From IMG/VR virus record IMGVR_UViG_3300021962_000081: a stretch of DNA of 20,000 bases; one strand, written 5' to 3'. Shown here piece after piece: positions 3,534 through 9,717 of the stretch. Each line of letters opens with the position of its first letter. Within the stretch, counting starts at the first letter, position 1. Both the position numbers and the translations under genes were made by a program. The notes below the pieces were generated by a model. It saw only the letters and a program-made list of their open reading frames with translations, ran no database searches and had not been told where the DNA came from. The stretch comes from an uncultured virus (IMG/VR IMGVR_UViG_3300021962_000081) (taxonomy: Duplodnaviria > Heunggongvirae > Uroviricota > Caudoviricetes).

Positions 3534-3718
3534 ATGAATATGAAGTTATATTAAGGGAAATAGATATACAGGTTAGAAATTTAGAAGAACATTTAGGAAC
3601 AGGCATGGCCAAAGACTATGCTGAGTACCAAAATATATGTGGAAAGATATCAGGTCTACTTTCTACACGAAGATACATACAAGACCTTCAAAAAAATATG
3701 GAGAACTCAGATGAGTGA
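3530..3718 (+). CDS. Small hypothetical protein (62 aa, helical)
   Basis: ATGA overlap with the portal stop, SD AAGGAA upstream. Motif DYAEYQNICGKISGL is typical of the small ORF found between portal and GroES in this kind of phage. Confidence 0.75.
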   Translation: MNEYEVILREIDIQVRNLEEHLGTGMAKDYAEYQNICGKISGLLSTRRYIQDLQKNMENSDE

Positions 3719-4121
3719 AATACTAATCGGATCAAACCCCGATGATGTAAACGCAACAACATCTCTGCCCCAAACTGCAGAGGAAAAAGCAAAGCAACTC
3801 CCAGAGGTTTCAGGTTATAGAATTTTATGTGCTATACCAGAAGCTGATGACAAGTTTGATAGTGGACTGGTAAAGTCTGCTGAAACAATGAGAAATGAAG
3901 AAGTTTTATCTACAGTATTCTTTGTAGTTAAAATGGGTCCAGATTGTTACAAGGATGAAAAAAGATTTCCTTCAGGTCCTTGGTGCAAAGTTGGAGACTT
4001 CATCTTAGCCCGCCCTAATTCAGGTACACGCCTGAAGATTCACAATAGGGAATTCCGAATAATCAATGATGATAGTGTCGAAGGTATCGTAGAAGATCCT
4101 CGTGGCATTAGTCGTATTTAA
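3711..4121 (+). CDS. groES: GroES/Cpn10-like co-chaperonin (136 aa)
   Basis: Likely start is ATG 3711 (GGAGA at 3700-3704), not 3618. GroES-like pattern: LPEVSGYRILC, mobile-loop-like SGLV, VVKMGPDCY, CKVGDFIL, G-T-R-L-K, REFRIINDDSVEGIV. Confidence 0.85.
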   Translation: MSEILIGSNPDDVNATTSLPQTAEEKAKQLPEVSGYRILCAIPEADDKFDSGLVKSAETMRNEEVLSTVFFVVKMGPDCYKDEKRFPSGPWCKVGDFILARPNSGTRLKIHNREFRIINDDSVEGIVEDPRGISRI

Positions 4122-6197: not shown

Positions 6198-7106
6198 ATG
6201 GCTATTTCACGTGCACAGCTCCTAAAAGAGCTATTACCAGGTCTTAATGCGCTATTCGGTTTAGAGTACGCAAGATATGGCGAAGAACATAAAGAAATCT
6301 ACGAAACAGAGACTTCAGAACGTTCATTCGAAGAAGAAACAAAACTTTCAGGCTTCTCAGCAGCACCAGTTAAAAACGAAGGCACTGCCATCGCTTATGA
6401 CAATGCTCAAGAAGCATGGACAGCTCGATACAATCATGAAACTATCGCTCTTGGCTTCAGCTTAACTGAAGAAGCTATTGAAGATAACTTATATGATTCT
6501 TTATCAGCTCGTTACACAAAAGCTTTAGCAAGAGCTATGGCTTACACAAAACAAGTTAAGGCTGCTGCAGTTATTAATAACGGCTTCAGTGCTTCATACG
6601 CTGGTGGTGACGGCAAAGCTTTATTTGCTACTGACCATCCACTTGTTTCAGGCGGTACAAATAGTAACACTCCATCAACAGCAGCTGACTTGAACGAAAC
6701 TTCATTGGAAAATGCAGTTATTCAAATCGCAGCTTGGACTGATGAGCGTGGTCTATTAATTGCAGCTAAACCTAAAAAACTTATCGTTCCACCAGCATTG
6801 CAATTCGTTGCAACTCGCTTGTTAGAAACTGAGTTACGTGTTGGTACAGCTGACAATGATATCAATGCTATTAAGAACAATGGTTCTATTCCAGAAGGTT
6901 ACACAGTTAACCACTTCTTGACAGACACAAACGGTTGGTACTTAACAACTGATGTTCCTAATGGTATGAAACACTTTGTTCGTACTCCATTAAGCAATTC
7001 AATGGACGGTGACTTCGATACAGGTAACGTACGTTATAAATCACGTGAACGTTACTCATTCGGCTGGTCAGATCCGCTCGGTATGTTCGGTTCACCAGGT
7101 GCTTAA
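6198..7106 (+). CDS. Major capsid protein (HK97 fold; Mu gpT-like family)
   Basis: 302 aa. N-terminus MAISRAQLLKELLPGLNALFGLEY, then EEAIEDNLY, PKKLIVPPAL and RERYSFGWSD. Strong SD TAAGGAGA; followed by an intrinsic terminator. Confidence 0.92.
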   Translation: MAISRAQLLKELLPGLNALFGLEYARYGEEHKEIYETETSERSFEEETKLSGFSAAPVKNEGTAIAYDNAQEAWTARYNHETIALGFSLTEEAIEDNLYDSLSARYTKALARAMAYTKQVKAAAVINNGFSASYAGGDGKALFATDHPLVSGGTNSNTPSTAADLNETSLENAVIQIAAWTDERGLLIAAKPKKLIVPPALQFVATRLLETELRVGTADNDINAIKNNGSIPEGYTVNHFLTDTNGWYLTTDVPNGMKHFVRTPLSNSMDGDFDTGNVRYKSRERYSFGWSDPLGMFGSPGA

Positions 7107-7124
7107 TTAAGCATTTGATGGTAG

Positions 7125-7152
7125 AAAAGGCTCTATTCGTAGGGCCTTTTTT
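7125..7152 (+). terminator. Rho-independent terminator after the major capsid gene
   Basis: AAAAGGCTCTA-TTCG-TAGGGCCTTTTTT: stem with one G-U pair, UUCG loop, U-tract. The upstream A-tract suggests it may act bidirectionally. Confidence 0.88.
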
Positions 7153-7214
7153 ATTTGCCTGCGTATATGAAAATACTAGCGTTTACGGGCAAAAGTATTG
7201 TAAAATAAACATAT

Positions 7215-7290
7215 CCAGGAATAACCTGGTTTATTAGACTGTCCTGGCAGACGCATAAAAGACTAATAAGCCTAACTTTTTATGAAGGAA
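7215..7290 (+). ncRNA. Candidate structured RNA with two pseudoknots (possibly the Mu-gpT-DE motif)
   Basis: 10-bp stem 7228-7237/7263-7272. Inner hairpin CTG-TCCTGG-CAG (7239-7250) whose loop complements CCAGGA (7215-7220). CATAAAA (7254-7260) complements TTTTATG (7278-7284), next to SD AAGGAA. Located just downstream of a gpT-like capsid gene. Confidence 0.6.
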
Positions 7291-7295
7291 AAATC

Positions 7296-7775
7296 ATGTC
7301 AAGAACCACATTCTCAGGTCCAGTCAAATCAGGTACCAATAGATACTCACCAAGCAAGAACGTTGGAACAACAGTATTAACACAATCTACAGCATTTGCA
7401 TTTACAGCTGCAGGTACTACAACTAATACATTCTACATTCCATCTGCTAGTAAAATCTTAAGCATTACATTTGATACTACAACAGCATTCACAGGCGGTA
7501 CAGGCGCTGTTACAGTAGGTAATGTTGCTTCAGGTACACAATACGCTTCATCAACAACAGTAACTACAGGTGGTCGTGCAACTCCAACATTCACAGCTGC
7601 ACAATTAACATCTATGTTATCAACTCCAGTTGATGTAGCTTCTAGCAACGGTAACGGTGCTTCATCAGCAATTGCAGTAACAGCAGTAGCAGGTGCAGGC
7701 GTAACAGCTGGATCATTAGTAGTTACTATTACTTACATCCAATCAGACGACCGTGCAAACTCAGGCGACCAATAA
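7296..7775 (+). CDS. Putative minor virion structural protein (159 aa, Thr/Ala/Gly/Ser-rich)
   Basis: SD AAGGAA at 7285-7290. N-terminal MSRTTFSGPVKS motif is typical of the gene following the MCP in such phages. Beta-rich composition. Confidence 0.65.
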   Translation: MSRTTFSGPVKSGTNRYSPSKNVGTTVLTQSTAFAFTAAGTTTNTFYIPSASKILSITFDTTTAFTGGTGAVTVGNVASGTQYASSTTVTTGGRATPTFTAAQLTSMLSTPVDVASSNGNGASSAIAVTAVAGAGVTAGSLVVTITYIQSDDRANSGDQ

Positions 7776-7782
7776 TTAATCT

Positions 7783-7807
7783 AAGGGGAGTTCTCTCCCC
7801 TTTGTTT
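7783..7807 (+). terminator. Probable intrinsic terminator or stabilising hairpin
   Basis: AAGGGGAG-TTCT-CTCCCCTT, a perfect 8-bp stem followed by TGTTT, in the gap after the 7775 stop. Confidence 0.72.
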
Positions 7808-8118: not shown

Positions 8119-8365
8119 CGCTTCTATGATGATGCTATGGAATCTTTTACTAACTGTTGTAGTTGGTATTATTGGCTATATTGTTAAAGATAAATTTGAT
8201 GAGCTTACCCGTCTTAGTATATTACTTAATAAGACTCGTGAAGAAGTTGCTCGTGATAATGTTACTCAAGCTGAACTAGATAGAATTGTAACTCACTTGG
8301 ATGTACGATTCTCTAAACTAGAAGGCAAGATTGACGAACTTATAAGACAACATCATGCCCAGTAA
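8111..8365 (+). CDS. Small membrane protein: N-terminal TM helix plus coiled coil (holin-like candidate)
   Basis: Hydrophobic segment LWNLLLTVVVGIIGYIV followed by a heptad-like charged helix. Overlaps both neighbouring genes. Confidence 0.55.
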   Translation: MDSASMMMLWNLLLTVVVGIIGYIVKDKFDELTRLSILLNKTREEVARDNVTQAELDRIVTHLDVRFSKLEGKIDELIRQHHAQ

Positions 8366-8741
8366 ATCCAAAGCTCAACATAAACTTATGACAGCAGTAG
8401 CTCATAATAAAGCTTTTGCTAAAAAGGTTGGTATTCCACAATCTGTAGGTAAAGATTTTATGGAAGCTGACAAAGGTAAGAAGTTTAAAAAAGGCGGTGT
8501 ATCTTTAGCTGTAGGACGTGGTGAAAAACTACCTGTATCTAAAGGTGCTGGTTTAACAGCAAAAGGTCGTGCTAAGTATAATGCTGCTACAGGATCTAAT
8601 TTAAAAGCGCCACAACCACAAGGTGGGCCTCGTAAAAGATCATTCTGTGCTCGTATGTCAGGAATGCCTGGTCCAATGAAAGATGAAAAGGGCAGACCTA
8701 CTCGTAAAGCAGCTTCTCTAAAACGCTGGAAATGTAATTAA
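8355..8741 (+). CDS. Basic Lys-rich hypothetical protein (128 aa)
   Basis: Begins MPSKSKAQHKLM; contains GLTAKGRAKYN, RKRSFCARM, SLKRWKC. Appears to be two modules joined at FKKGG. Confidence 0.75.
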   Translation: MPSKSKAQHKLMTAVAHNKAFAKKVGIPQSVGKDFMEADKGKKFKKGGVSLAVGRGEKLPVSKGAGLTAKGRAKYNAATGSNLKAPQPQGGPRKRSFCARMSGMPGPMKDEKGRPTRKAASLKRWKCN

Positions 8742-9184: not shown

Positions 9185-9469
9185 ATGGCTGTTATTGAAA
9201 AAATTAAGAAGTTTGTTAAAGACATTACTCCTCCTTCTGGTGAACAAAAAGCTAAGATTGAAGAAAAGCAAATGAAGGTTGAAGAAATGAAAGACCCTCA
9301 AGCTGCTCAAAAAAATAAAGCTATGTATGATGTAAGCACAGAAGTTAAAAAGTTTGATGACAATTACAAACGTGGTGGCAAAACTAAATGCATGGCTAAA
9401 GGTGGTTCAGCATCAGCTCGTGCAGACGGTATTGCTATTCGTGGCAAAACTAAAGGAAAAATCTGCTAA
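9185..9469 (+). CDS. Basic hypothetical protein (94 aa)
   Basis: SD AAGGA. Contains YKRGG and MAKGG; C-terminus ADGIAIRGKTKGKIC is paralogous to the upstream gene's C-terminus. Confidence 0.72.
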   Translation: MAVIEKIKKFVKDITPPSGEQKAKIEEKQMKVEEMKDPQAAQKNKAMYDVSTEVKKFDDNYKRGGKTKCMAKGGSASARADGIAIRGKTKGKIC

Positions 9470-9717
9470 TGAGAGCCTCTCGTGGTATGGGTGATATTGC
9501 TCCATCTAAAATGCCTAAGGGTAAAAAGAAAGCCCGTAGAGATGATACGGACTTTACCCAATATGCCAAAGGTGGCAAGGTTGGTTTGTATGAAAATATT
9601 CATAGAAAACGTCAACGTATAGCTGCTGGCTCTGGTGAAAAGATGAGAAAGCCTGGATCTAAAGGCGCACCGACAGCAAAACAATTTAAACAAGCTGCTA
9701 AAACAGCTAAGAAATAA
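9469..9717 (+). CDS. Basic hypothetical protein (82 aa)
   Basis: TAATG overlap with the previous gene. MRASRGMG...YAKGG, then GLYENIHRKRQRI...GAPTAKQFKQAAKTAKK. Confidence 0.72.
   Translation: MRASRGMGDIAPSKMPKGKKKARRDDTDFTQYAKGGKVGLYENIHRKRQRIAAGSGEKMRKPGSKGAPTAKQFKQAAKTAKK

Follow-up and report, generated by a model that had tools for sequence, protein, structure and literature searches.

The 20,000-nucleotide stretch of DNA analysed here (the window, to which all positions refer) belongs to an uncultured tailed virus of the Caudoviricetes, IMG/VR record IMGVR_UViG_3300021962_000081, and is a tailed-phage head-and-tail module with genes for a large terminase, a portal protein, a GroES-like protein, a Mu gpT-like major capsid protein and an SU10-type adaptor. 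Between the capsid gene and the gene that begins at 7296 lies a gap of 189 nucleotides (nt; 7107–7295), indeed the largest between plus-strand open reading frames (ORFs), in which an earlier reading of the letters alone (hereafter the original prediction) had noticed a candidate RNA with two pseudoknots, set between the capsid terminator and the ribosome-binding site of the next gene. Comparison with relatives confirms that this gap holds a real and strongly conserved double-pseudoknot RNA in just that position, and indicates that it is part of the downstream gene, whose product is a probable capsid cement protein. The locus, with the four helices named A to D, is laid out as follows.

6198–7106, plus strand: gene for the major capsid protein (Mu gpT-like, HK97 fold; Pfam Phage_capsid_4 8.8e-15, Mu-like_gpT 4.1e-11; PHROG 371, major head protein).
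7122–7156, plus strand: intrinsic terminator of the capsid gene, with 14-nt arms, a loop of 4 and a T run (inverted repeat I1; a long stem in the fold).
7201–7206, plus strand: –10-like hexamer TAAAAT, 8 nt before helix A, a putative promoter element judged by conservation of TAnnnT.
7213–7295, plus strand: the whole RNA motif up to the start codon (covariance model R2, 73.8 bits; model R1, 70.3 bits).
7215–7220, plus strand: 5′ strand of helix A, CCAGGA (pseudoknot 1), pairing with TCCTGG at 7242–7247.
7225–7229, plus strand: A*, an alternative partner of helix A that overlaps the first 2 nt of helix B (hairpin CCAGG/CCTGG with 7215–7219).
7228–7237, plus strand: 5′ strand of helix B, GGTTTATTAG, forming 10 base pairs (bp), one of them G-U, with 7263–7272.
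7239–7250, plus strand: hairpin C, with CTG (7239–7241), loop TCCTGG (7242–7247) and CAG (7248–7250); the loop is the 3′ strand of helix A.
7251–7253, plus strand: conserved unpaired ACG junction (A46 and C47 invariant, G41-type columns nearly so, in alignments A1 and A2).
7254–7260, plus strand: 5′ strand of helix D, CATAAAA (pseudoknot 2), pairing with TTTTATG at 7278–7284.
7261–7262, plus strand: unpaired GA that precedes B′, conserved (no variation at G49 or A50 across 130 sequences).
7263–7272, plus strand: 3′ strand of helix B (B′), CTAATAAGCC, the partner of 7228–7237.
7273–7277, plus strand: TAACT junction from B′ to D′, its A-C-T mostly conserved.
7278–7284, plus strand: 3′ strand of helix D (D′), TTTTATG, ending 0 nt before AAGGAA.
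7285–7290, plus strand: Shine-Dalgarno sequence AAGGAA of the 7296 gene; AAGGA follows right after D′ in most copies.
7296–7775, plus strand: gene for a 159-amino-acid (aa) jelly-roll protein with a conserved N-terminal arm, probably a trimeric capsid cement or decoration protein (structure models, synteny).
7783–7802, plus strand: terminator-like hairpin closing this one-gene cassette (8-bp stem, 5 G-C pairs, T-rich tail).

All four pairings of the original prediction are present in the sequence where it had placed them. Helix A crosses both B and C, and helix D crosses B, so that four helices form two pseudoknots within a conserved, doubly knotted RNA of about 72 bases; the start codon of the downstream gene is the ATG at 7296. 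Three of the pairing arms are listed by an inverted-repeat scan (I4, I8 and I11). Taken alone, the copy in the window is unconvincing: the same 221 nt hold 11 inverted repeats of at least 6 nt, the fold of 7201–7298 has a z-score of –1.81, with 8 of 200 shuffled sequences folding equally well, and the D/D′ duplex is worth only –2.7 kcal/mol. The evidence beyond chance is comparative. The match of covariance model R1 (expectation value, E, 1.9e-15) is the sole one within the window, the runner-up scoring 9.8 bits.

The comparison draws on relatives in IMG/VR, where a search pattern covering a single sequence variant matched at least 120 stretches, and more than 100 distinct copies keep all four pairings by compensatory changes. 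Simple parsing yielded 144 distinct segments of 94 nt, from which L166 and L235 were dropped, the rest of the motif being missing. When 130 distinct copies are aligned by MAFFT alone (A2), 90.3% of the cells are paired, as against 30–39% with the partners slid by 1–3 columns; both-sided changes occur at 17 of the 25 pairs, and none of 500 shuffles attained the pairing or the covariation score of the real alignment. Two further alignments each held two of the helices out of the aligning model. When 69 distinct copies were aligned by a covariance model holding only helices A and D (A4), the unfitted helix B was 94.6% paired, with covariation at 9 of its 10 pairs, and the unfitted helix C was 100% paired, its middle pair being U-A in 41 copies, A-U in 24 and C-G in 2. 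The fitted helices covary as well, A at all 5 pairs (95.4% paired) and D at 6 of 7, the seventh pair not being conserved (A-U 21, unpaired 46). In the converse alignment, of 68 distinct copies by a model holding only B and C (A3), the unfitted helices A and D were 76% and 67% paired, with D covarying at 6 of 7 pairs; the two percentages are underestimates because the strands are misregistered in a sequence-only alignment, and since MAFFT misaligns the 5′ strand of helix A, the helix A counts on both A2 and A3 are too low.

An alignment-free count avoids this difficulty. Among the copies selected on B and C, a 5–7-nt Watson–Crick complement of the C loop occurs in the 5′ part of all 67 parsable copies (shuffles, 5%), and a D/D′ complement of at least 6 nt in 63 of the 67 (shuffles, 3%); the single sequence with a D/D′ score of 0 is probably L014, whose match is cut off at the 3′ end. 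The variety of helix A is considerable, including CCAGG/CCTGG, CCGGG/CCCGG, CGGGG/CCCCG, CTGGG/CCCAG, CTAGG/CCTAG, CCGAG/CTCGG and CCGGAT/ATCCGG. G-U pairs are frequent (e.g., G-U 75 at one pair of A2), so that it is the sense strand that folds. Several unpaired positions also vary little or not at all: the A that separates B from C, the AC(G) after C, the GA before B′ and the A-C-T before D′. Aligning relatives and asking whether the pairings covary, a test that the original prediction had itself put forward, thus bears out a genuine double pseudoknot: the pairings are conserved and covary in all four helices, including those held out of the model.

The motif follows the downstream gene rather than the capsid gene. 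In a blastn comparison of the gap with 137 related IMG/VR loci, conservation is confined to 7210–7295, and wherever the homologue of the 7296 gene is located, this stretch directly precedes it. The covariance model finds a match in 89 of the 119 loci that have at least 300 nt after the capsid gene. The motif starts 52–137 nt past the capsid stop codon in 57 of these 89 loci and 329–1665 nt past it in the other 32, where further genes intervene and the motif still stands directly before the 7296-gene homologue. Those 32 loci show the motif to be the leader of the gene that follows it, and not the tail end of the capsid gene, and run counter to the idea, contained in the original prediction, of an element defined by its place downstream of a capsid gene. 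The distance to the ribosome-binding site is also constrained, D′ ending 0–3 nt before the Shine-Dalgarno sequence in all lineages seen and overlapping it in two subgroups (D′ = GCATGAGG or GCATGGAG). Distant homologues of the gene (35–43% identity; L124:2455–2501, and similar loci among L123–L135) begin only about 45 nt after the preceding ORF and have no motif.

At its upstream end, the RNA is preceded by the –10-like TAAAAT to which the original prediction had drawn attention, and the hexamer proves to be conserved: of 167 distinct upstream regions, 141 have TAnnnT 4–16 nt before helix A, and 102 have it at 8–9 nt. TATATT is the commonest form, and the –35 region is often occupied by the terminator of the preceding gene. 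With the hexamer as a promoter element, transcription would probably start at about 7213–7214, 1–3 nt before 7215. Contigs from RNA libraries fall on either side of this region. One study has a contig that reaches up to 7189 and its next one from 7218 onwards, the corresponding positions are 7077 and 7225 in another, and a third study has a 99-nt contig at 7226–7324; the two 2017 RNA-library studies may belong to one campaign.

The original prediction had also drawn a hairpin at the 5′ end that competes with pseudoknot 1, and this, too, is found well beyond the window: a stem of at least 4 bp is present in 137 of 168 distinct copies, compared with 11% of shuffles, and A* (CCNGG-like) changes together with helix A across the copies. 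About a fifth of the copies lack the A/A* hairpin, among them those of Pelagibacter phage HTVC023P, of phage DSL-LC04 and of the L039 type. For the copy in the window, each of the two nested states comes to –9.3 kcal/mol when pseudoknot 1 is left out of the count, so that they are iso-energetic. A switch or a folding intermediate involving A/A* is accordingly plausible, and not universal. Two further roles for these elements were considered and set aside. The A/A* hairpin followed by TTTATT (7215–7237, flagged as terminator-like on both strands) might have been an attenuator; the T-rich tail is not kept in other lineages, and the resemblance was taken as chance. The C loop might have acted as an anti-Shine-Dalgarno sequence whenever A is engaged in the alternative hairpin; judged by eye, the loop types UCCCGG, CCCCAG and CCCCCG do not track the Shine-Dalgarno types.

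The motif is widespread in a large group of phages from freshwater and the sea. The nearest named phages are the Pelagibacter phages HTVC023P and HTVC027P, with about 65% nucleotide identity in the capsid gene, and near-identical DNA was found in freshwater, lake, drinking-water and one marine metagenome run. Complete genomes of about 65 kb carry one copy each in three cases and two copies in a fourth. The fourth, a 65,464-bp IMG/VR record (G002), has its copies at C1:321–400 and C1:64008–64090 on the minus strand, about 1.8 kb apart across the record ends, which implies two tandem motif-led genes. A clear copy in the cultured phage HTVC023P (43.5 bits, E 1.3e-12) stands directly before gp41, the gene for a 173-aa hypothetical protein that adjoins the capsid gene. 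A weaker copy in DSL-LC04, a metagenome-assembled phage (19 bits, E 8.8e-5), has all four helices readable, and a GC-rich copy can be read by eye at L120, whose capsid protein is only 39% identical. Loci L116–L137 gave no model match at E ≤ 0.01; L120 and L126 have weak matches in the expected position (E 0.06 and 0.32, respectively). Contig L270 (9,024 bp), binned with a metagenome-assembled genome (MAG) of an uncultured betaproteobacterium, has a strong copy (94.1 bits) right at its end, which could be either a binning artefact or a hint of the host. The hosts vary, from SAR11 (HTVC023P) through a predicted Pseudomonadota host (DSL-LC04) to the contig binned with the betaproteobacterial MAG.

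Model R2, run at E ≤ 1 with filters off, found no copy in HTVC027P, QDWS535 (Alcaligenes), CRP-901 (Roseobacter), Pag-Yong1 (Planktothrix) or 023Pt_psg01. In relatives without the motif, the orthologous gene is headed by other structured leaders, each of which, by eye, contains an upstream stretch complementary to the Shine-Dalgarno region. These leaders lie at L271:3940–4052 (HTVC027P), L268:4430–4530 (023Pt_psg01), L273:3000–3086 (CRP-901) and L274:3440–3508 (Pag-Yong1), and their complementary pairs, also identified by eye, include CCTAG/CTAGG-AG, CTGTCT/AGACAG-GAG and CCGTCTCC/GGAGACGG.

What does the gene led by the motif encode? Sequence searches with the 159-aa protein matched no Pfam or PHROG family, gave no tblastn match at E ≤ 0.01 among GenBank phages and nothing meaningful in the PDB (E 0.78); its 146 homologues are all unnamed. 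An AlphaFold2 model built with 33 homologues (predicted local distance difference test, pLDDT, 77.6; predicted template-modelling score 0.72) shows an all-beta jelly-roll fold and disorder at the N-terminus. The best Foldseek match to it is 7eel_H, chain H of the capsid asymmetric unit of cyanophage Pam1 (E 5.3e-4). Upon re-alignment, this chain and the KHP30 and KHP40 cement chains (7dn2_1 and 7dou_4) tie for first place with Z 9.1 and root-mean-square deviations of 2.7–3.3 over 113–115 residues. Chain J of the Ralstonia phage GP4 capsid reaches Z 8.2; unrelated jelly rolls reach Z 8–8.7, so the fold alone is not decisive. The protein is also predicted to form trimers. The trimer model scores 0.93, compared with 0.05 for the best of three controls, with at least 94% of contacts shared between runs and a partner pLDDT of 90, and in it residues 1–31 contact neighbouring subunits. 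In the calibration, 20 of 30 proteins with structures solved as pairs of one chain attained the corresponding mark, as did 1 of 23 solved as single chains; the trimer job, with three copies and an alignment of its own, differs from that calibration, and its pass may reflect likeness to solved cement trimers.

Synteny points the same way, the gene of DSL-LC04 in this position being annotated in GenBank as ‘cement protein’ (it begins MATTTFSGPVKAGT). Taken together, the models and gene order make the 7296–7775 product a probable capsid cement or decoration protein. It resembles the cement proteins of Pam1, KHP30/KHP40 and Ralstonia GP4 in its jelly-roll or Ig-like beta sandwich of 125–155 aa and in having its gene adjoin the capsid gene, and the Pam1 protein in particular in its predicted trimer with an N-terminal arm that would reach the neighbouring subunit, as described for Pam1 in passages of PMC9698820. 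It differs from them in sequence, identity being 11–18%, and its virion location is a prediction. Among the distinct ORFs that follow motif copies, 113 of 180 match the family's hidden Markov model; the other 67 share its N-terminal signature, M-x-x-T-T-F-x-G-P-V-R/K-S or close variants, and then diverge, with lengths of 62–248 aa. Across loci L001–L257, the first ~25 residues of these ORFs (TTFSGPV[R/K]SG...) are kept and the remainder diverges strongly; the neighbouring capsid protein is 88–100% identical across the same loci. This pattern fits a conserved capsid-anchoring arm joined to a fast-evolving exposed domain, the whole carried in a promoter–gene–terminator cassette.

Catalogued RNAs offer no counterpart. 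At the gathering threshold, Rfam 15 has no match in the 20-kb window, and a search of 7050–7350, a range that includes the 7150–7300 for which the original prediction had proposed a cmscan run, returned only weak terminator-like matches at 7070–7235. Nor did any of 16 diverse copies, or any of four complete genomes of related phages, reach a family threshold. ARAGORN found no transfer RNA or transfer-messenger RNA, and when the gap was compared with GenBank phages by blastn, the sole match was a terminator-like one in Ruegeria phage Tedan.

We tentatively favour a role as a cis-acting translational operator, the folded state of which would be locked by a factor that limits access of the 30S subunit, with pseudoknot 1 in addition protecting the 5′ end. 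That the element controls translation of the 7296 gene had already been suggested in the original prediction, and the fold and the position make this the best reading; the mechanism is one that we infer. As we picture it, 7213–7295 would be the 5′ leader of the messenger RNA (mRNA) for the cement-like protein, with its first ~72 nt folded into the four helices, whose pairings are established by covariation. Long helix B encloses the 3-bp hairpin C, whose loop forms pseudoknot 1 with the extreme 5′ end of the RNA, and strand D, inside B, forms pseudoknot 2 with the stretch just 5′ of the Shine-Dalgarno sequence. Locking of pseudoknot 2, for which a phage-encoded protein, for example unassembled cement protein or a different protein of the head, is the likeliest agent, would then keep the 30S subunit off the adjacent or overlapped Shine-Dalgarno sequence, whereas pseudoknot 1 would tuck the 5′ end away and so shield the message from 5′-end-dependent decay. 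In most lineages, helix A could instead enter the alternative A/A* hairpin, either as a second state or as an intermediate of co-transcriptional folding. Three features incline us toward an operator: D′ lies at or over the Shine-Dalgarno sequence; helix D is weak alone, as expected of a helix that needs a factor; and the junctions are conserved beyond what a stabilizing hairpin would need. Also in its favour are the constant place of the motif directly before one gene family, its single copy in three of the four complete genomes, the –10-like hexamer upstream and, as a link to translation, the complementarity to the Shine-Dalgarno region read by eye in the leaders of motif-free relatives. Several observations weigh against it. 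The Shine-Dalgarno sequence lies outside every helix in the window and in most copies, so that the folded state could equally leave it free. Varied hosts fit a phage-encoded or host-independent factor, and a constitutive role fits them equally. Some homologues, of the L124 type, do without such a leader, which is hence not obligatory for the family. As for the putative promoter, the TG of an extended –10 element is one base out of register in most copies. The finding that no RNA-library contig bridges 7190–7217 is a weak hint of a transcript start there, as contigs cannot prove such a start or rank expression.

Nearly as likely as the operator is the reading that the motif is a constitutive stabilizer and insulator of the 5′ end, with no switch and no ligand. 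The buried end would block RppH, RNase E or RNase J, and the ribosome-binding site would be kept from being trapped by upstream sequence, which would allow high output of a cement protein needed in roughly the amounts of the capsid protein. Such a role agrees with a fold that begins a few nt from the putative start and pairs the 5′ end in pseudoknot 1, with a Shine-Dalgarno sequence outside all helices in the window and most copies, with the occurrence of the motif in phages of different hosts and with the terminators that flank the gene, which consequently needs its own promoter. A plain hairpin would suffice for it, however, whereas four helices and about 12 unpaired bases are conserved; D′ over the Shine-Dalgarno sequence, as in two subgroups, would lower translation; and conservation extends to the alternative A/A* hairpin. 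A riboswitch that binds a small molecule or an ion, with a pocket at the junction and a ligand that stabilizes pseudoknot 2 beside the ribosome-binding site, strikes us as unlikely. In the preQ1-II/III, SAM-II/V (SAM, S-adenosylmethionine) and guanidine-III riboswitches, a compact pseudoknot has a 3′ strand that touches or includes the Shine-Dalgarno sequence, together with invariant unpaired bases. The present motif resembles them in these respects, in architecture, size and position, and its D/D′ helix is weak alone. It differs from them in matching no Rfam family (no riboswitch family at E ≤ 10), in the second pseudoknot that captures the RNA's own 5′ end and in the gene that it serves, which is always a virion structural gene and never one of metabolism or transport: the 180 distinct downstream ORFs belong to one family or carry its N-terminal signature.

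More improbable still is a new class of self-cleaving ribozyme, or a knot that halts 5′-to-3′ exonucleases in the manner of an exonuclease-resistant RNA (xrRNA). Self-cleaving ribozymes are common in phage DNA, and the double-pseudoknot topology, the conserved junction bases and the placement at the 5′ terminus would suit either; no Rfam 15 ribozyme family matches, however, and the promoter-like element directly upstream makes cleavage unnecessary. The strand order also differs from that of ribozymes like that of hepatitis delta virus (HDV). Theirs is P1-P2-P3-P3′-P1′-(P4)-P2′, a nested double pseudoknot, whereas here the loop of hairpin C contains the partner of the 5′ strand, and B is additionally crossed by helix D/D′. 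Neither the ribozyme nor the packaging RNA that the original prediction had also considered finds support. We give little weight to processive antitermination of the put (phage HK022) or EAR kind, through which polymerase would read past 7783–7802 into the tail genes. The motif is well placed for it, as a promoter-like element lies just before it, a long series of co-directional genes follows and 7783–7802 contains a terminator-like hairpin; yet an RNA that acts on polymerase would not need its 3′ end tied to the Shine-Dalgarno sequence (0–3 nt away or overlapping), as it is in all lineages, and no Rfam family matches. Finally, the original prediction had identified the motif with Mu-gpT-DE or a relative, an assignment to which we now give almost no credence. 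Mu-gpT-DE (Rfam RF03012, name and accession as given in PMC7657543) is a metagenome-derived motif of unassigned function found downstream of Mu gpT-like capsid genes, and the present motif shares this setting in the window and in 57 of the 89 loci. It is about 72 nt long and tied to the start of the next gene, however, following that gene and not the capsid gene, whereas the RF03012 model of 53 positions (cut-off 49 bits) has no match at E ≤ 10 in 7050–7350 or at E ≤ 1 in the 16 diverse copies, and in four complete related genomes and one fragment gives only 9.5–14.3 bits, in unrelated places and not at the capsid locus.

Among known systems, the closest in kind to the operator that we favour is the leader of gene 32 in phages T4 and T2, where a pseudoknot is an autogenous translational operator (PMC3014915); passages of PMC10690425 record that the T4 gene 32 pseudoknot has no Rfam entry. 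The hallmark of this type of operator, a pseudoknot in the 5′ leader of the regulated mRNA, is present here, as covariation and the position before the gene indicate. As in T4, the leader of a phage mRNA would carry a pseudoknot at its 5′ end, before the ribosome-binding site, and the protein served would be one whose unbound pool is expected to reflect a macromolecular ligand. T4 has a single pseudoknot, of the H type, at a distance of 67 nt from the start codon, and gp32 coats the unstructured A+U-rich tract that comes after it (PMC3014915), whereas the present RNA has two interlocked pseudoknots, with four helices in all, that end 0–3 nt from the Shine-Dalgarno sequence, and shows no likeness to the T4 leader in sequence. 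Fremin et al. (2023) derived from IMG/VR 8495 candidate structured RNAs named ‘DNAVirus_N’, of which 879 lie within 25 bp upstream of genes (passages of PMC10690425); the present motif comes from the same data source, is the same kind of object and is abundant enough for such a pipeline to detect. Six motif strings and six contig identifiers were not found in the supplementary tables of that paper (its alignments and models lay outside this search), so that an anonymous prior listing may exist among its candidates, and the passages of its text that were available do not discuss a cement-protein leader. A literature search outside the subscription journals found no description of this motif. 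As far as could be checked, the double-pseudoknot topology and its association with a cement gene are thus new, while the pseudoknotted phage mRNA leader as a kind is known from T4 gene 32.

A more far-reaching claim, which we hold to be doubtful, is that the motif represents a new functional class of RNA fold: a self-capping double pseudoknot that would sense a partner, be it capsid assembly through free cement protein or a small ligand, or else a block to 5′ nucleases as a counterpart of xrRNAs. If true, such a class would be at work in podophages that rank among the most abundant of fresh and marine waters, the pelagiphage HTVC023P among them. To our knowledge, structured leaders through which the dose of a virion protein is set have hardly been studied except in T4. 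The comparative support for this structured leader is unusually clear, with four helices, two pseudoknots and hundreds of natural variants; the motif is very abundant in aquatic viromes, as the yield of the single-variant pattern attests, and its compact topology joins the short list of natural double pseudoknots. As a cultured representative exists in HTVC023P and about 72 nt are few enough for probing, crystallography and cryo-electron microscopy, the motif offers a direct test case for how the output of cement protein is matched to that of capsid protein. It is also of use in annotation, marking the start of a fast-evolving capsid-surface gene that current family libraries miss.

Elsewhere in the window, the GroES-like co-chaperonin gene (3618–4121; PHROG 3188, 1.8e-10) lies between the portal and capsid genes, and it occupies the same place in HTVC023P, HTVC027P, DSL-LC04, CRP-901, QDWS535 and Pag-Yong1. 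Two small ORFs downstream of the cassette, at 8355–8741 and 9469–9717, share C- or N-terminal pieces with many different PHROGs (DUF6321; phrog_10346, 16759 and 16028), which suggests mosaic shuffling of domains among virion-associated proteins.

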